64,000 nucleotides of DNA from an uncultured Tissierellaceae bacterium (GCA_964484955.1 CAZAGS010000001.1:8037-72036), one strand, 5' to 3'; shown: positions 5,492 through 15,513, counted from the first letter of the stretch. The notes: generated by a model from the sequence alone, not told the origin. Numbers and translations are program-made.

Positions 5492-5531
5492 AAAAAGCAC
5501 TTCATATTTTAAAATATGAAGTGCTTTTTTT
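5492..5531. terminator. Bidirectional rho-independent terminator between convergent ynbB-like gene and lexA
   Basis: Perfect 14-bp-arm palindrome GCACTTCATATTTT/AAAATATGAAGTGC (5497-5524), flanked by an A-run on the left and a T-run on the right. Confidence 0.75.
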
Positions 5532-6147
5532 AGAGTTTTCTATATAAACCAATAACCTTTCCTAAAACTGAAACATCTTTTGAATAAATTGGTTCCATAA
5601 ATTGATTTTCTGGTTGTAATCTTATACGATCTTTTTCTTTAAAGAATCTTTTTAAAGTAGCATCTTCACCTAGAAGAGCTACTACAATATCTCCGTTCAT
5701 AGCTGTTCTTTGCTCTTTAATTAAGACTAAGTCACCATCAAGTATACCAGCGTCTATCATACTTTCACCCTGAACAGAAAGCATAAAGACATCATGTCCT
5801 TCTACTAACTCTAAAGGAACAGGGTAGGTGTCTTCAATATTCTCCACAGCTAATATAGGAACACCGGCAGTAATTTTACCAACTATTGGAATATCAACTG
5901 TTCGTTTTCTAATTAATAAAAAATCATCATTTTTATCTAAGATTTCTATGGCTCTTGGTTTAGTAGGGTCTTTTCTTATATAACCTTTAATTTCTAACTT
6001 TTCCAAATGTCCATGTACAGTGGATGTAGATTTAAGACCAACGCCTTTACATATTTCTCTAACTGCAGGGGGGTAGCCTTGTCTTTGAATTTCATTTTTT
6101 ATATAAAGTAAGATTTCAATTTGTTTTTGATTTAGATCCTCATACAT
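5530..6147 (-). CDS. lexA: LexA repressor
   Basis: N-terminal winged-helix ([26 protein letters not shown]). Ala-Gly cleavage site (KITAGVP). S24 peptidase Ser/Lys motifs (GESMIDAGI..., LKRF). Confidence 0.95.
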
Positions 6148-6259: not shown

Positions 6260-6288
6260 TTGACATAGAACGAATGTTCCTGTAGAAT
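6260..6288 (+). promoter_or_regulatory. Promoter of the yneA-like gene (-35 TTGACA, 17-nt spacer, extended -10 TGTAGAAT)
   Basis: TTGACA at 6260-6265, a 17-nt spacer, TAGAAT at 6283-6288 preceded by TG. Confidence 0.65.
6268..6279. promoter_or_regulatory. LexA box GAACGAATGTTC inside the promoter spacer
   Basis: Perfect GAAC-N4-GTTC palindrome core between the -35 and -10 of the yneA-like promoter. Confidence 0.75.
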
Positions 6289-6298
6289 ATAATTAATA

Positions 6299-6310
6299 GA
6301 ACAGTTGTTC
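6299..6310. promoter_or_regulatory. LexA box GAACAGTTGTTC just downstream of the predicted start site
   Basis: Perfect GAAC-N4-GTTC core about 10 nt after the -10 element. Confidence 0.75.
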
Positions 6311-9260: not shown

Positions 9261-10805
9261 TTATTTTGCATATTCAATGGCCCTTGTTTCTCGAATTACA
9301 TTTATTTTAATCTGGCCAGGATAATCTAATTCAGCTTCAATTCTCTTGACTATTTCTCTAGCTGTAAGAATTGTTTGGCTTTCATTTACTTCATCAGGTT
9401 TTACCATAATTCTAACTTCTCGACCTGCTTGTATTGCAAATGATCTTTCTACACCTTCAAATGAATTTGCTATTTCTTCCAATTTCTCAAGGCGTTTAAT
9501 ATATAATTCTAATGATTCCCTTCTTGCACCTGGTCTGGCAGCAGATATAGCATCTGACGCTTGTACCAGTACAGCTTCTACTGTTTCAGGTTCAATATCT
9601 CCATGATGGGCTTCCATTGCATGAATTACTTCTTTCGATTCTTTATACTTTCTAGCGATGTCTACACCAATATCTACATGTGGACCTTCTACTTCATGAT
9701 CTACAGCTTTTCCTAAGTCATGTAATAGTCCGGCTCTCTTTGCAATTTTTATATCTGCGCCTAATTCAGCCGCAATCATTCCTGCCAAGTGAGATACTTC
9801 AATAGAATGTTTTAACACATTTTGTCCATAAGAAGTACGGTATTTTAATCTTCCTAAAAGTTTTATAATTTCAGGATGAAGACCGTGTACACCAGTATCA
9901 AAGGCAGCTTGTTCTCCTTCTTCTTTGATAATAGTATCTACTTCTTTTTTAGCTTTATCAACCATTTCTTCAATTCTAGCTGGATGTATTCTTCCATCTA
10001 TTATTAATTTTTCTAAAGCTATTCGTGCAACTTCTCTTCTTATTGGGTCAAAACCTGATAATACTACTGCTTCAGGAGTATCATCTATTATTAAATCAAT
10101 ACCCGTTAAGGTTTCTAGCGTTCTAATATTTCTACCTTCTCTACCGATAATCCTACCTTTCATTTCATCATTAGGTAGGGTAACAACTGTTACTGTTGTT
10201 TCAGCTACATGGTCTGCTGCAAATCTCTGAATTGCAGTAGATATAATCTCCCTAGCTTTTTTATCAGCATCTTGTTTAGTTTGATATTCCATATCTTTAA
10301 TCATTACAACACTTTCATGTTCTATTTCTTTTTTGATTGTATCTAGTAATAATTCCTTAGCATCTTCGGATGTTAATCCAGATAATCTTTCTAATTCTTC
10401 TCTTTGTTTAACTACTAATTCATCAATCAGTAGTTCTTTGTCTTCTAATTGTTTGTTCTTTCTAGCAATTTGGTCTTCTTTCTTCTCTATTGATTCTGAT
10501 CTTCTATCAATAGTTTCCTCTTTGTTTAAAATTCTTCTTTCTAGTTTCTGAATTTCATTTCTTCGTTCTCTAGCCTCTTTTTCTGCTTCAGTTCTTGAAC
10601 GATGAATTTCTTCTTTAGCTTCTAACAATAATTCTTTCTTTTTTGCTTCTGCATTTCTCTCTGCTTCTTTCCCAGCATTCTCAATAATTTTTTTAGATAA
10701 CTCTTCAGCATTATTTATCTTACCTTCGCCAATATGTTTTCTGATCATATAACCAGCGATTATTCCAATAATTGCGCTTAGAATTAAGAATATTAATGTT
10801 TCAAT
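9261..10805 (-). CDS. rny: Ribonuclease Y (membrane-anchored endoribonuclease), start revised upstream to a non-canonical ATT
   Basis: KH domain ([17 protein letters not shown]) and HD domain ([10 protein letters not shown]...LLHDLGKA), collinear with B. subtilis RNase Y. The 19 in-frame codons upstream of the ORF-track Met encode the conserved N-terminal TM helix ([19 protein letters not shown]). AGGAGG lies 9 nt before ATT at 10805. Confidence 0.9.
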
Positions 10806-10938: not shown

Positions 10939-10967
10939 ATTTTATTACTATTTACTAACAATGTCAA
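10939..10967 (-). promoter_or_regulatory. Candidate rny promoter (-35 TTGACA, 17-nt spacer, -10 TAAAAT)
   Basis: On the - strand: TTGACA (10967-10962), 17 nt, TAAAAT (10944-10939). Located just after the stop of the upstream cluster. Confidence 0.55.
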
Positions 10968-10973
10968 GAAAAA

Positions 10974-11627
10974 TTAAGGTTCAACAGGTCTTACACTACT
11001 TGTAGTAGCTATTAGTTCTACTCTATATGCATTATCGCTAATAGCTGATAGGTGTTGGTTATGGGTTACCATTATTATTTGTCTATTAAACATTTCTGAG
11101 CTTTGCTTTAAAAAGTCTCCTACATTAAAAACATAGTCCTCGCTTACATGTTTTGCTGGTTCATCTAAGATTAAAGGGCCTTCTATCTTAGGTTTATGAA
11201 TTTGAAGGAAAGCTATCCTAAGAGCTAGGGATATAATATCTACCACTCCTCCCCCTCTAGATAACTCAGGCCTAGTTTTTATTATTGTGTCTCCATGTGT
11301 ACTAACTACATAAAATTCTGCATTTGCTTTTCCTCTTAATTCCTCTAATTCAATTATGAATTCAATATCTGTTTCAAAAACATATTGTAAACATTTAGTT
11401 ACCAGGGTTTCAATTTGTTTCTTTGCCTGTAATCTGGCAAATTCAGAAGTTTTCTGAAACAAAATTATAACTTTTTCTAATAATTCTTGGTCTATTATTA
11501 TCTTTTCTATAGTTACTTTATTTTCGTGAAGCTGTTCTAGTAATTTATCTTTTTTTCCTTGTTCTCTTAAAATATAATTCTTTATTTGTTCTAATTGATT
11601 ATCTAATTCGCTTATTTTTTTTATCAT
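10974..11627 (-). CDS. Rad50/SbcC-like ABC ATPase, C-terminal head half (signature motif, Walker B, H-loop)
   Basis: About 60 aa of N-terminal coiled coil, then an ABC signature-like LSRGGGVVD, Walker B PLILDEP, D-loop, and H-loop MVTHN. No Walker A. The ATG starts 1 nt after the upstream stop (coupled). Confidence 0.7.
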   Translation of the reverse strand: MIKKISELDNQLEQIKNYILREQGKKDKLLEQLHENKVTIEKIIIDQELLEKVIILFQKTSEFARLQAKKQIETLVTKCLQYVFETDIEFIIELEELRGKANAEFYVVSTHGDTIIKTRPELSRGGGVVDIISLALRIAFLQIHKPKIEGPLILDEPAKHVSEDYVFNVGDFLKQSSEMFNRQIIMVTHNQHLSAISDNAYRVELIATTSSVRPVEP

Positions 11628-11628
11628 A

Positions 11629-11880
11629 CTAATTCTTCTTTTCTAGTAAGTCTTTTGGAAGTAATTCATTAGCCTCCTGAAAAAGCTTGTTAATTTCCAT
11701 GGTTAAAGAATTAATTTCTGTTTCAAGATCCTCAGGCTTTACTCCTAAGTCCTTTAACTCTTTTATAATTTCTTCTTCTTGTTGTTTTAATTGCTCTAGA
11801 CGTGCTTCTGCTCTATATTTCAATGATTTGGCTTTTTCCAAATTATCCTTTAATAAGTTTAAATCCTTTTCATAGTCCAT
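11629..11880 (-). CDS. 83-aa coiled-coil protein (middle piece of the split Rad50-like ATPase?)
   Basis: Heptad-rich, charged sequence with no enzymatic motif. Own strong SD (AGGAGG 7 nt upstream of ATG). Sandwiched between the two ATPase halves. Confidence 0.6.
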   Translation of the reverse strand: MDYEKDLNLLKDNLEKAKSLKYRAEARLEQLKQQEEEIIKELKDLGVKPEDLETEINSLTMEINKLFQEANELLPKDLLEKKN

Positions 11881-11891
11881 AGATATACCTC

Positions 11892-13334
11892 CTATTTATA
11901 ATGTTCTATAATATGATTTACTTTGTTCTCATCTATATAACTAAGACAAACTGGGCAAACTTCTTGCTTAGAAAGTAAATCTCTATAATCTTTTAGGTGT
12001 TTTGTTTGTAATAAGTTATTTTGTATTACAGATTCTTGTGTTTTATTTATTTCTGAAGTTAATATTTTAAGTTTATTATATATATTTTGTAATTTTAGAA
12101 TTTTATTATTGGAAAAGTTTAAATTATTTATAATATTATCTAATTGGTCAATTTCAGTAAAATTTTCCATATAAATTTGACCTTTGTTTATATTATTTTG
12201 AATACTAGTATATGAAATGTTTAATTGCTTGAGATTTAATAATTCCTGAGATTTCTTATGGATCAATTTACTAGTATTTTGTAAGTTAGAAATATGTTTT
12301 AATTTATCGATTGTCTTATTACATGTCTCAAGCTCATATTTATACTTTGAAATACTATTGTTTAATTTATTCAATGCATTCATTCGTATTAGGAGTTTAG
12401 ATAATAAGTCACATTTATCTGCCCCATAGTGAAGATTTTCAAGTTTCTTCATAATGTTGATTTCTTCGTTAATGTTAGTTTTAACTGTGTGGTAAGTTCT
12501 TTTTTTATTATTATAATATTTATGCTCTTTGTATAAATCTTCTAACCTAACAATTATAAAATCTATATTATCTATCTCTTTTAGCTTGTTTAAATATGAT
12601 TTTGATTGTTTTAAAGAAGATTCTGTTCTGATTAATATATTATTCAATTCTGTTAATCTATTATATTTATTAGTTAGTTCTTGTATAATACTTCTGATGA
12701 TTTCAACTTTTTGTATTCTATTACTTACCTCAGTTATATAATCATATTGTTCTAACTCGGTTTCTAACTTAGAAATACTTAATTCTAAGTTTTTTCTAAT
12801 AGTGGAGATATTTCTATTATCTCTTAGCCCTTCTTGAAGAGCATCATCTATAACATTAACACCTACTAATCTCCCTATTGCACTGGCTCTTATAGCAGTT
12901 CTTTCAGAAAGTAAGAATGCCCCATCTAATTGTTCCCCTAGATTTATAGAAGCAGATTCTGAACTGTCTAGGTGAATCTTCTTAATATTTATAGCATCTA
13001 TTATTTCTTGTGGTACATTAGTACCAAAACCTTCAAAGATTAATTCTTCCTCATCTGGTATAAAAAGATGATAGCTATTTTTTGATTTACTTCTATACCT
13101 TTTCACCTTAATATTATCACTGAACTCAATGGTTACACTGGCCTCTCTTTCTCCTTCTCTAATAAAATAGTCTCCTGCAGGCTCATTATATAAAACCCAC
13201 TTAAGTCCTCTAATAATTGCAGATTTACCGGAATCAGAAGGTCCAACAATTACATTTAACTGATGATCTAATTCTATTATTGTATATTTATGAGACTGGA
13301 AATTTTGAAGTATTATCTTTTTAATATATCTCAT
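11892..13334 (-). CDS. Rad50/SbcC-like ABC ATPase, N-terminal head half + long coiled coil ending in a CxxC zinc hook
   Basis: Rad50/RecF-type N-terminus (IKKIILQNFQSHKYTIIEL...NVIVGPSDSGKSAIIRGLKWVL, Walker A G31-S38). About 290 aa of low-complexity coiled coil. CPVC at residues 460-463 of 480. No signature or Walker B. Confidence 0.75.
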   Translation of the reverse strand: MRYIKKIILQNFQSHKYTIIELDHQLNVIVGPSDSGKSAIIRGLKWVLYNEPAGDYFIREGEREASVTIEFSDNIKVKRYRSKSKNSYHLFIPDEEELIFEGFGTNVPQEIIDAINIKKIHLDSSESASINLGEQLDGAFLLSERTAIRASAIGRLVGVNVIDDALQEGLRDNRNISTIRKNLELSISKLETELEQYDYITEVSNRIQKVEIIRSIIQELTNKYNRLTELNNILIRTESSLKQSKSYLNKLKEIDNIDFIIVRLEDLYKEHKYYNNKKRTYHTVKTNINEEINIMKKLENLHYGADKCDLLSKLLIRMNALNKLNNSISKYKYELETCNKTIDKLKHISNLQNTSKLIHKKSQELLNLKQLNISYTSIQNNINKGQIYMENFTEIDQLDNIINNLNFSNNKILKLQNIYNKLKILTSEINKTQESVIQNNLLQTKHLKDYRDLLSKQEVCPVCLSYIDENKVNHIIEHYK

Positions 13335-13336
13335 TA

Positions 13337-14320
13337 TTAATCACCACTTAAACCTTTCATTTGGACAAGTGTAATCCTTCTTAGTGCTTCAATTTTAACA
13401 TTTTCACTTACACCTTCTGAAGTAGAAACTTCTATTAACAAATCATTTATATCCATCTTTTCGAAATCAAGTGCATCATCTATGGTTTGCTTAAATTCAA
13501 ATAGTCTTTCTCTTTGAAATATATTTTTTTCAATTTCTGCCCTATCCAATACATCTTCTCCAGTTTTGGCTGTTTTTAGTGGCACAAATCTAATATCTAT
13601 TTTATCCTTTAAATCTATTAATGCTACTTGAGGTTGCCTTTCTATTTCTCTTAAACTATTTGTAATTCTTACAATACTACCTGGATTGATAAAATATTTA
13701 TTGTCAATAATAGTCTTTTTAAAGCCTGAATGATAGTGTCCAGAAAGTGTAATATCCGCTTTAGTTGATTTTATATCGTCAATTAATGTAAATGGTATAC
13801 CTTTGATAAAAGGTTTGTCCAAAAGCATACCATGAACTAAATGGATGGAATAATTTATATCTTCATTTATACTATTTACCAAATAATATTCTCTGTTATT
13901 AGGATCGTCTATATTGTATATATAAGGTTGACCAGTTAATTGAACTTTAATATTATCCTTTTCCAGTAATATTTTACCCTTTCCATCAATTATATTAACA
14001 ATATTTAAACTATTTAACAAACCAACCATTGTTCTATGGACTGTTTGAGGGTTATGACCATATATATCATGATTACCACTAACCATGTATATAGGAACTT
14101 TAATCTGATTTAGGATATTTGCAAATCTACTAACAATAGAAACTGAAATATCTGGTCTATCAAATAGGTCTCCACCATGAATTACAAAATCTATACTTTC
14201 ATCTTCAATTATCTTAAGAATTTCTAAAAATTTGTTCTCTAATGTTTCAACATAGTCATCTTTTCTATTTTTCGGACTTGTTCCTCTTATATGGGTATCT
14301 GTAAAATACAATATTCTCAA
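13337..14320 (-). CDS. Mre11/SbcD-family metallophosphoesterase (DNA repair exonuclease-like)
   Basis: Calcineurin-like motifs in canonical order: DTH (FTDTHIRG), GDLFD, GNHD, LVHG, GHYH. TTG start with a GGTGGGA SD. Stop lies 2 nt before the ATPase start. Confidence 0.85.
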   Translation of the reverse strand: MRILYFTDTHIRGTSPKNRKDDYVETLENKFLEILKIIEDESIDFVIHGGDLFDRPDISVSIVSRFANILNQIKVPIYMVSGNHDIYGHNPQTVHRTMVGLLNSLNIVNIIDGKGKILLEKDNIKVQLTGQPYIYNIDDPNNREYYLVNSINEDINYSIHLVHGMLLDKPFIKGIPFTLIDDIKSTKADITLSGHYHSGFKKTIIDNKYFINPGSIVRITNSLREIERQPQVALIDLKDKIDIRFVPLKTAKTGEDVLDRAEIEKNIFQRERLFEFKQTIDDALDFEKMDINDLLIEVSTSEGVSENVKIEALRRITLVQMKGLSGD

Positions 14321-14334
14321 TTCTATCCCACCCT

Positions 14335-14362
14335 AACATAAAACCTCCTATTAAAGGAGGTT
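14335..14362 (-). terminator. Weak hairpin terminator/attenuator immediately after recA
   Basis: On the - strand: AACCTCCT-ttaat-AGGAGGTT followed by only UUAUGUU. It overlaps the recA stop and sits 15 nt before the SD of the Mre11-like gene. Confidence 0.45.
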
Positions 14363-15419
14363 ATTTTGTATTTTTGTCTTTTTCCTTTAGATCAATCTCA
14401 GTATCTTTAGGATCAACATCATCTTTAATTAGTTCATATTTTATTCTTATTTTCTTTTCAATCTCTTGAGCGATTTCCGGATTGTCTCTTAAAAAGTCTT
14501 TGGAATTTTCTCTTCCTTGTCCTAGTCTATGCTCACCATAACTATACCAAGATCCTGATTTATTTATTATATCAGCAGTTACTCCAACATCCAATATATT
14601 ACCGTCCTTAGATATTCCTAATCCGTACATTATATCAAATTCTGCTTGTTTAAAAGGTGGTGCTACCTTGTTCTTAACAACTTTTATTCTAGTCCTATTT
14701 CCTATTACTCCATCACCTTGTTTAATGGCATCAATTCTTCTTATGTCCATTCTAACACTTGCATAGAATTTTAATGCACGTCCTCCAGTGGTGGTTTCTG
14801 GACTTCCAAACATAACTCCAATCTTTTCTCTAAGTTGATTTATAAAGATAACTGTAGTATTAGATTTACTAATAGAGCCTGCAAGTTTTCTAAGGGCTTG
14901 AGACATAAGCCTAGCCTGTAATCCCATATGGCTATCACCCATTTCTCCTTCAATTTCAGCCTTTGGAACAAGTGCTGCTACTGAATCCACTACCACAATA
15001 TCTACAGCATTAGAACGTACTAATGATTCTGTTATTTCTAAAGCTTGTTCTCCAGTATCAGGTTGGGAAATTATTAAATTATCTACATCTACTCCTAATC
15101 TTCTAGCATATGTAGGATCTAGGGCATGTTCAGCATCAATAAAGGCTGCAATTCCACCTAATTTTTGGGCCTCAGCTACAATATGAAGAGTAACAGTTGT
15201 TTTACCTGAGGATTCAGGTCCATAGATTTCAATAATTCTACCTCTAGGAACTCCGCCAATACCTAATGCTATGTCAAGATCAAGAGAACCAGTAGGTATT
15301 ACATCCAAATTCATTTTGAAATTCTCACCTAAACGCATTATTGAGCCTTTTCCAAATTGTTTTTCAATCTGACTTATTGCTAAGTCTAATGCTTTTTTCT
15401 TCTCGCTATTTTCAACCAT
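14361..15419 (-). CDS. recA: Recombinase RecA
   Basis: Canonical RecA sequence: Walker [43 protein letters not shown], and L1/L2 loops. Confidence 0.97.
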
Positions 15420-15453: not shown

Positions 15454-15471
15454 ATTATAGAACATTTGTTC
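15454..15471 (-). promoter_or_regulatory. recA LexA box GAACAAATGTTC abutting a TATAAT -10 element
   Basis: Perfect GAAC-N4-GTTC core at 15460-15471. On the - strand it is directly followed by TATAAT (15459-15454). A second possible promoter lies upstream (TTGACT-17-TATTAT). Confidence 0.75.
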
Positions 15472-15513
15472 AGTATCTATATAATATAATACAAACATTA
15501 ATAAGTCAAACAC

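Follow-up and report, generated by a model that had tools for sequence, protein, structure and literature searches.

A four-gene cluster between recA and rny in an uncultured Tissierellaceae bacterium: a probable relative of SbcCD/Mre11-Rad50 with a split ATPase

A cluster of four minus-strand genes, here called P1 to P4, lies between recA and rny in a 64,000-nucleotide (nt) stretch of DNA from an uncultured Tissierellaceae bacterium (GCA_964484955.1 CAZAGS010000001.1:8037-72036); this whole stretch is referred to below as the window. The cluster is proposed to encode a DNA-end-processing nuclease of four subunits that is related to SbcCD/Mre11-Rad50, a reading to which a probability of about 0.75 is assigned. 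It is carried by the homology of the individual parts, by the persistence of the split across lineages, by gene fusions that link the parts, and by neighbourhoods of the repair type; from these, an assembly, its stoichiometry, its substrates and its regulation can be inferred. A first-pass annotation of the window had described a Mre11/SbcD-like nuclease with a Rad50/SbcC ATPase in three polypeptides, a description borne out by profile searches, by a structure model compared using Foldseek, and by the fusions. The four open reading frames (ORFs) were all found at the positions and with the lengths that it had given. They are listed here with the two flanking genes:

13337-14320, minus strand: P1, a metallophosphoesterase ORF of 327 amino acids (aa) with a TTG start
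11892-13334, minus strand: P2, 480 aa, with a Rad50-like N-terminal head, a helical arm and a putative CPVC hook
11629-11880, minus strand: P3, 83 aa, a helix-loop-helix protein and putative dedicated small subunit
10974-11627, minus strand: P4, 217 aa, with N-terminal helices and a Rad50-like C-terminal head
14361-15419, minus strand: recA, an ORF upstream of P1 and the presumed first gene of the transcription unit
9261-10748, minus strand: rny, downstream of P4

The stop codon of P1 and the ATG of P2 are separated by 2 nt. The P2 TAG overlaps the AGGAGG Shine-Dalgarno (SD) sequence of P3, with a gap of 11 nt between the two genes, and the P3 TAG is followed, after one base, by the P4 ATG. 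Inspection of these junctions confirmed that each piece has its own SD sequence or a coupled stop/start.

P1 matches Pfam Metallophos (E 4e-16) and the PHROG family phrog_100, 'SbcD-like' (E 1.4e-16, aa 1-302). It contains DTH, GDLFD, GNHD, H163 and GHYH, and the metal ligands D8, H10, D51, N83, H163, H195 and H197 are invariant. The statement in the first-pass annotation that P1 has all Mre11/SbcD motifs holds as far as their presence is concerned, but these motifs are shared by the calcineurin-like superfamily at large and are not specific to Mre11. More specific evidence was provided by a family profile built from 36 orthologues and compared with the PDB, for which the best matches were Mre11 from Pyrococcus furiosus (2.9e-7) and Thermotoga maritima (1.9e-6), with Methanocaldococcus jannaschii Mre11 and Escherichia coli SbcD (1.4e-4) also among the best. 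In this comparison the Mre11/SbcD-specific homology was confined to aa 1-116. The C-terminal helical tail (aa ~255-327) is conserved, with K309, E311, A312, L313, R315, I316 and Q320 nearly invariant, and the TTG start is kept in orthologues. As in SbcCD/Mre11-Rad50, therefore, the cluster includes an adjacent phosphoesterase of the Mre11/SbcD type with a complete metal-binding site. These comparisons support the prediction that P1 is a Mre11/SbcD-like nuclease subunit, closest to Mre11/SbcD.

The two lobes of a Rad50-type head are distributed between P2 and P4. The relevant features of P2, in which the Walker A head, long helical arm and CPVC motif noted in the first-pass annotation are all present, are as follows:

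13221-13244, minus strand: Walker A motif GPSDSGKS, in the N-terminal ATPase lobe (aa 1-~163)
P2 aa 164-456, minus strand: long helical arm
12033-12728, minus strand: five tandem repeats (aa 203-253, 251-300, 299-347, 344-394 and 392-434)
11946-11957, minus strand: CPVC, the putative zinc hook (aa 460-463)

Those of P4 are:

P4 aa 1-~95, minus strand: N-terminal helices, preceding the C-terminal ATPase lobe
11247-11258, minus strand: signature-like RGGG (aa 124-127)
11160-11174, minus strand: Walker B motif LILDE (aa 152-156)
11061-11063, minus strand: H-loop histidine, H189

P2 matches the Rad50 model PRK03918 (1.4e-14) over its first ~90 residues. A second Rad50 model, PRK01156, aligns aa 4-479 of P2 to profile positions 3-474 of 895, and matches P4 (3.8e-8) at positions 803-894, that is, over the last ~90. 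When family profiles were compared with the PDB, P2 found the N-terminal fragment of Rad50, 3qkr_A (7.5e-12), and P4 found Rad50 3aux (7.7e-9), with SMC proteins behind at 1e-3, as well as the C-terminal Rad50 fragment 3qkr_B (3.6e-8; profile positions 33-216, nearly the full length). The AlphaFold2 model of P2 has a predicted local distance difference test (pLDDT) score of 80, and its top Foldseek matches are the Rad50 N-lobes 1f2u and 3auy. N27, G31, G36, K37 and Q135 of P2 are invariant, as are R124, G125-127, D155, E156 and H189 of P4. It is apparent that P2 has a Rad50-type N-terminal lobe with a Walker A motif and a Q-loop, and that P4 has a C-terminal lobe with a signature, Walker B, D-loop and H-loop, the signature being reduced to xGGG. 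P3 matched no Pfam family, but does match a PHROG family of its own, phrog_18563 (E 7e-9). Its aa 3-45 resemble aa 1-43 of P4 (hhalign probability 69.5%, E 4e-5).

C460, P461 and C463 of P2 are invariant across 118 sequences, and the P2 chain stops 17 aa past the second cysteine of CPVC. A CxxC motif lies 12-28 aa from the C-terminus of P2-like proteins in 10 of the 10 lineages examined, phages included. The arm between head and hook is not a uniform coiled coil; it contains five homologous repeats of ~47 aa, all in register in pairwise hhalign comparisons. Pairs of repeats were aligned with probabilities of 59-94% and E values of 1e-7 to 1e-4, eight of the ten pairs reaching at least 87%; in control comparisons of P2 helices with P3 and with P4 the values were at most 16% and usually below 3%. 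A hidden Markov model of the repeat found five copies in the window P2, at the same positions as hhalign, and, at E<0.1 and at matching positions, five in Acetohalobium, four in Thermosediminibacter and four in Caloramator. A compact bundle was at one point considered for the arm, prompted by helix breaks at regular intervals and by the confidence (high pLDDT) of the full-length model. It was dropped as less likely in view of the arm-only AlphaFold2 model, an extended segmented helix (pLDDT 89.5; predicted template modelling score 0.32) in which two repeats were fused into one helix. The modelled arm fits an extended form with stutter-like breaks.

The conservation of this arrangement was determined by a genome scan with one genome per species, in which 519 of at least 599 pattern-matching stretches were confirmed. 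The related loci discussed here are the best 80 of those 519, all from Tissierellia; wider breadth comes from protein searches and single look-ups. The order cinA-recA-P1-P2-P3-P4-rny was seen in every sufficiently long locus among the best 80 (80 Tissierellia species), with identities to the window proteins of 58-84% for P1, 37-59% for P2, 59-90% for P3 and 60-83% for P4. Each of the four is conserved in more than 80 species, well beyond what chance would give. The same order was found in Tissierella sp. Yu-01, Acetohalobium arabaticum (Halanaerobiales), Thermosediminibacter oceani and Caloramator, in the last of which recX sits between recA and P1. P4-like proteins number 1542 in 90% clusters. 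The P4 family has 1328 representatives at E<=1e-10 (50% clusters), the best 150 of which are nearly all stand-alone proteins of 200-260 aa, typically ~215 aa; no unsplit protein was found among these 150. P2-like proteins retrieved by homology search are uniformly ~480 aa in length. Database labels are generic: 'ATPase', 'AAA family ATPase', 'hypothetical protein' or 'metallophosphoesterase'.

Both the three-ORF split and the location between recA and rny are thus conserved in the related genomes. Since the split layout is kept in many anaerobic Firmicutes, across orders, and in phages, it is considered a real variant and not a frameshift, in agreement with the genuine gene fission proposed in the first-pass annotation; the split is old and under selection. 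In the bacterium Tissierella sp. P1 (L030:4292-4700), the P2 orthologue has an in-frame stop after an A8 run, at about codon 123; this is the only disrupted copy seen, and it may be explained by a pseudogene, by phase variation or by a sequencing error in the homopolymer. Such a case indicates that local disruptions or assembly errors do occur, and to that extent favours the view that the cluster is a canonical sbcC broken by strain-specific frameshifts or stops, i.e. a pseudogene or a sequencing artefact. That view is regarded as refuted by the comparative data, however, given that the break points are identical in all other loci and in the phages, that each piece has its own start and SD sequence or a coupled stop/start, and that unsplit proteins are absent from the best 150 representatives.

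Two further loci depart from the common layout in other respects. In Acetivibrio clariflavus (L086:8001-8681), a P4 homologue (52% identical) stands alone beside rny, with folD upstream; no P1, P2 or P3 was found within 8 kb of it, and these may be elsewhere in the genome or lost. In T. oceani (L087:8676-10031), 1.36 kb without a called gene lies between P4 and rny, as compared with ~130-420 nt in other lineages.

Naturally occurring fusions tie the parts to one another. In Desulforudis, P0343/P0512 (368 aa) consists of a P2 head joined directly to a P4 head with almost no arm, and is 41% identical to P2 aa 3-170 and 40% identical to P4 aa 46-204. The gp8 protein of Bacillus phage 0305phi8-36 is a fusion of P1 and P2, and is followed by gp7, a P3 homologue, and gp5, a P4 homologue; this indicates that the nuclease works jointly with the N-terminal half of the ATPase. 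All four parts are present in Bacillus phages 0305phi8-36, phBC6A51 and vB_BboS-125, and in these three phages the P3 homologues lie between the P2-like and P4-like genes (E 4e-12 to 4e-9). In a set of 60 IMG/VR loci that contain a P4 relative, the complete four-part set occurs in 22, and P1, P2 and P4 occur together in a further 19; the arrangements observed are P2-P3-P4-P1, P1-P2-P3-P4, or P1 fused to P2. In the case of gp8, Yoshida, Claverie and Ogata (2011; PMC3175470) listed the protein as a Mre11/Rad50 fusion in which one P-loop NTPase segment 'was not observed'. That segment is gp5, the separate C-terminal head three genes downstream. The present analysis differs from that paper in that the C-terminal head of gp8 is found to be encoded apart, with a P3 homologue, gp7, between.

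Two observations on phage genomes may be added. A 1-kb gap in the RefSeq annotation of vB_BboS-125 (NC_048735.1, L084:6866-7846) holds an intact SbcD-like ORF of 326 aa that is 37.5% identical to P1 over the full length. P4-like stand-alone C-terminal heads, 24-32% identical, were found in Microbacterium phage Magritte (L089:284-934) and Tunturiibacter phage Tunturi_5 (L090:5001-5666); since the hosts here are Actinobacteria and Acidobacteria, phages other than those of Firmicutes may commonly carry split SbcC-like ATPases.

An alternative reading is that the cluster is a domesticated or remnant phage recombination module that came by chance to lie beside recA, with little or no function for the host. 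The occurrence of the four-part architecture in the three Bacillus phages and in 22 of the 60 IMG/VR loci is in its favour, as are the separate PHROGs families for P2, P3 and P4, and the presence of relatives of P4 (the only part searched) on 12 non-mobilizable Firmicutes plasmids. On the other hand, no other phage genes flank the cluster, and its G+C content is similar to that of the surroundings apart from the arm of P2, which is rich in Asn, Lys and Ile. The fixed position and order across Firmicutes orders, with P4 46-83% identical, fit long vertical inheritance under selection, whereas the phage copies are more distant (37-46% identity). A possible ancient phage origin of the family would not, in any case, make the cluster functionless, and a remnant of this kind is judged quite unlikely.

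The window around the cluster is core-genome sequence of the housekeeping type, filled with long ORFs, and the syntenic stretch in Tissierella sp. Yu-01 contains ftsK, a radical-SAM/TRAM methylthiotransferase gene, a CDP-alcohol phosphatidyltransferase gene, cinA and recA, as well as rny, lexA, hfq, a tRNA isopentenyltransferase gene and mutL. The identity of recA is based on Pfam RecA_N/RecA_C matches in the syntenic orthologue and on full-length matches of 74-91% identity in the related loci. The cluster had earlier been described as wedged between recA and rny; it is not a recent insertion, but an ancient and fixed part of this core region.

Indications of function are provided by the neighbourhoods in which the genes occur. 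In Desulforudis, addB-addA follows directly after the P1 homologue and the fused head; the canonical sbcDC of Bacillus subtilis is similarly placed beside addBA. In Desulfovirgula thermocuniculi (L093:1516-7675) the order is nurA, a herA-like gene (DUF87), P1, P2, P3 and P4. The end-resection operon of archaea comprises herA-mre11-rad50-nurA, which the Desulfovirgula order mirrors. Phage copies lie beside helicase, primase, MCM-like or resolvase genes, in replication or recombination modules. These four independent contexts (the recA operon, addBA, nurA-herA and phage modules) argue for a role in the processing of DNA double-strand breaks and not in defence. The former role had been suggested in the first-pass annotation, and is supported by the recA operon, addBA and nurA-herA contexts.

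The same annotation had also raised the possibility of an SMC-type defence module. According to this alternative, the cluster would be an anti-phage or anti-plasmid system, Lamassu-like or Wadjet-like, in which the ATPase senses foreign ends and the phosphoesterase is the effector. P2 does match the PADLOC models for LmuB (5.9e-15), and those for AriA, GajA and PtuA via the N-terminal ATPase region, and P4 matches mad3 (3.6e-8). Lamassu is, moreover, said to derive from SbcCD (PMC12663957), which has been counted in favour of a defence role. The PADLOC matches, however, reflect similarity at the level of the ABC/SMC ATPase family and are no better than the matches to Rad50. Like LmuB and other defence ABC/SMC ATPases, the system has a Rad50/SbcC-like head and a coiled coil, but Lamassu is characterized by LmuA and LmuC partners in a variable defence locus. 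Here, the neighbours are recA, cinA and rny, the partner is a nuclease of the Mre11 type, and no LmuA/LmuC-type partner or other defence gene was found near the cluster among the window ORFs or in the syntenic relative. The locus is fixed between recA and rny in the sufficiently long loci of the 80 species and in four orders, with no variable island; the remaining contexts are addBA and nurA-herA, and phages carry the system in their own replication modules. The defence module accordingly finds no support beyond ATPase-level similarity, and is considered improbable.

Several observations nevertheless weigh against the assignment to SbcCD/Mre11-Rad50. The LmuB models score on P2 about as well as the Rad50 models. 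Residues 143-245 of P1 score better with enzymes of the Vps29/YfcE type than with Mre11, and no match to the Mre11 capping domain was found in P1 with NCBIfam models or with the family profile against the PDB. In P4, the earlier claim of an ABC signature-like motif, Walker B and H-loop stands with regard to RGGG, LILDE and H189, but the signature is a degenerate xGGG that lacks, across the family, the conserved serine of LSGG. The hook in P2 is assigned from its invariant cysteines and their position at the end of the outgoing helix; scores fell below significance both with Pfam Rad50_zn_hook (E 0.053, below threshold) and with Foldseek, in which the Rad50 zinc hooks 1l8d and 5gox ranked first for the arm model but at E ~1. 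In the window, a terminator-like hairpin separates recA from P1. With respect to the arm, the return strand that can be assembled from P4 (~95 aa) and P3 (83 aa) is ~178 aa long, ~110 aa short of the outgoing arm of ~290 aa, and the length of P2 differs by roughly one repeat from lineage to lineage (444, 480 and 531 aa), with no matching change in P3 or P4. Because of this shortfall and the uncompensated variation in P2, a simple 1:1:1 reconstitution of a Rad50 arm does not fit, and the earlier statement that pieces 2-4 add up to one Rad50 has to be modified. There may be more than one P3 per arm, the distal repeats may be paired between two P2 chains, or the arm may be partly single-stranded. 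That the arm is built non-covalently, with the return strand supplied in trans by the P3-like helix of P4 and one or more copies of P3, or with distal P2-P2 pairing, is put forward only tentatively and is considered rather unlikely.

On the assignment to SbcCD/Mre11-Rad50, the system might operate as follows. P1 would be a Mn-dependent phosphoesterase (nuclease), whose conserved C-terminal helices probably hold the arm at its base in the manner of the helix-loop-helix domain of Mre11. P2 would provide lobe I of the ABC head (Walker A and Q-loop) together with the entire outgoing arm, and its CxxC, as a zinc hook, would link two complexes. P4 would provide lobe II (signature-like motif, Walker B, D-loop and H-loop) behind an incoming helix, and P3, together with the P3-like first helix of P4, would form return-strand segments pairing with the P2 arm repeats. 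Two P2:P4 heads would engage on DNA in an ATP-driven manner, positioning P1 to cut blocked ends or hairpins. By reference to what is known of SbcCD/Mre11-Rad50, such cuts would leave clean ends for resection and RecA loading.

The features of the locus that bear on its expression are:

15481-15509, minus strand: recA promoter-like site TTGACT-17-TATTAT, from a promoter scan
15460-15471, no strand assigned: LexA (Cheo) box GAACATTTGTTC, between the promoter-like site and the recA start
14342-14362, minus strand: terminator-like hairpin AACCTCC-TTTAA-TAGGAGGTT with a T-rich tail, in the recA-P1 gap
10939-10967, minus strand: rny promoter-like site TTGACA-17-TAAAAT, directly after the P4 stop, the putative 3' boundary of the unit

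The LexA box has three matches in the window, as compared with 0.34 expected, and 70 of 74 related loci have a Cheo box upstream of recA, at a distance of no more than 200 nt. The gap between recA and P1 is 40 nt in the window, with a median of ~40 nt in the related loci, and holds only the conserved hairpin and an SD sequence; with this median it is too short for a separate P1 promoter. The spacing is 1 nt in T. oceani, and in Caloramator P1 overlaps recX. The hairpin has a stem of 8 bp with four GC pairs and is probably a partial terminator. Because it stands between the two genes, co-transcription of recA and P1 is something that we infer. No Rfam match was found in the intergenic regions. 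P1-P4, lying downstream of a promoter with a LexA box and of a terminator that looks leaky, would in this arrangement be expressed only weakly and be induced by DNA damage.

The adjacency to rny, which is as conserved as that to recA, might be taken to indicate a chromosome-organizing or RNA-linked role tied to RNase Y, all the more so as the P4 homologue of A. clariflavus stays beside rny without P1-P3. Yet rny has its own strong promoter-like site directly after P4 (11 of 12 matches, the top-scoring site of the 8.5 kb scanned), relocated clusters accompany addBA or nurA-herA and not rny, and the Rad50 branch is typified by its nuclease partner and zinc hook. A role of this type is therefore regarded as very improbable.

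Mre11-Rad50/SbcCD is universal, and how its arms and hook signal to the ATPase head is still debated. The present system appears, on the sequence comparisons, to be a homologous variant of it with a split ATPase and an extra small subunit. As in the systems of E. coli, P. furiosus, T. maritima and T4 (gp46/gp47), a gene for a calcineurin-type nuclease adjoins that for a Rad50-branch ABC ATPase. Walker A is on the N-lobe, Walker B and the H-loop are on the C-lobe, a long arm with CxxC at its presumed tip lies between, and the genes are tied to recombination genes and phage replication modules. In contrast to those systems, in which both lobes are on one chain with an intramolecular antiparallel coiled coil, the ATPase here consists of three polypeptides, one of them a dedicated subunit of ~80 aa, and the chain ends 12-28 aa past the hook. 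The arm is made up of five ~47-aa repeats with a return strand ~110 aa short, the signature is degenerate, and the nuclease is compact at 327 aa, no capping domain having been detected in it.

Rad50 head halves are known to reconstitute an active ATPase when co-expressed. The two-chain Rad50 domains in the PDB (1F2T/1F2U, 1II8 and 3QKR) likewise have the head halves as separate chains, and it is these entries that P2 and P4 match best in the PDB, but they are laboratory truncations without arm or hook, whereas the split described here is natural, with arm and hook on one chain. Another comparison is with YhaN of B. subtilis, a single chain of ~960 aa in the AAA_27 family. P2 differs in not being a single-chain ATPase of this type, its match to Pfam AAA_27 (E 0.0093, 16 bits) lying below the cut-off of 22. 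YhaN-YhaO, or SbcE-SbcF, resembles the P1-P4 system in that an SMC-like ATPase is paired with a metallophosphoesterase in Firmicutes, and is reported (PMC2811018) to be a second such pair, acting in double-strand-break repair. In the searchable literature, no naturally split, bipartite or fragmented Rad50/SbcC and no account of this gene neighbourhood was found, an earlier mention in the classification of ABC ATPases by Krishnan et al. 2020 being possible.

A conserved natural version with separate head halves, a chain end at the hook and a small arm subunit would make it possible to dissect which covalent links matter. The reading also assigns a likely function to four widespread, generically annotated genes of the recA operon in many anaerobic Firmicutes, would explain 'incomplete' SbcC-like genes of phages such as 0305phi8-36, and, through the copy linked to nurA-herA, would add a bacterial lineage to those with the archaeal-type gene set for end resection. 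If the arm were indeed non-covalent, it could be opened or remodelled, for which we know of no precedent in any SMC-family protein. Nature would then have tested whether the coupling of hook and ATPase head requires an unbroken coiled coil.

Some further details of the region were observed. The stem AACCTCC...GGAGGTT of the recA-P1 hairpin, an anti-SD/SD-like pair, is the same across Tissierellia, while the loop and flanks vary; its sequence seems more conserved than terminator function needs. Two more perfect LexA boxes, at 6268-6279 and 6299-6310, lie upstream of a minus-strand ORF at 5530-6147 (205 aa), which from its length and from synteny with Tissierella sp. Yu-01 is predicted to be LexA; given the position of these boxes, lexA is probably autoregulated. 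For rny, also on the minus strand, a start at the first ATG (10748) would cost the protein its N-terminal membrane helix. The region upstream of that ATG, 10749-10805, encodes 19 in-frame residues with no ATG, GTG or TTG, but has an ATT codon at 10803-10805, 9 nt past AGGAGG. Many Tissierellia loci share the arrangement GGAGGTG-N7-ATTGAA, which suggests that translation of RNase Y may start at ATT in this organism.

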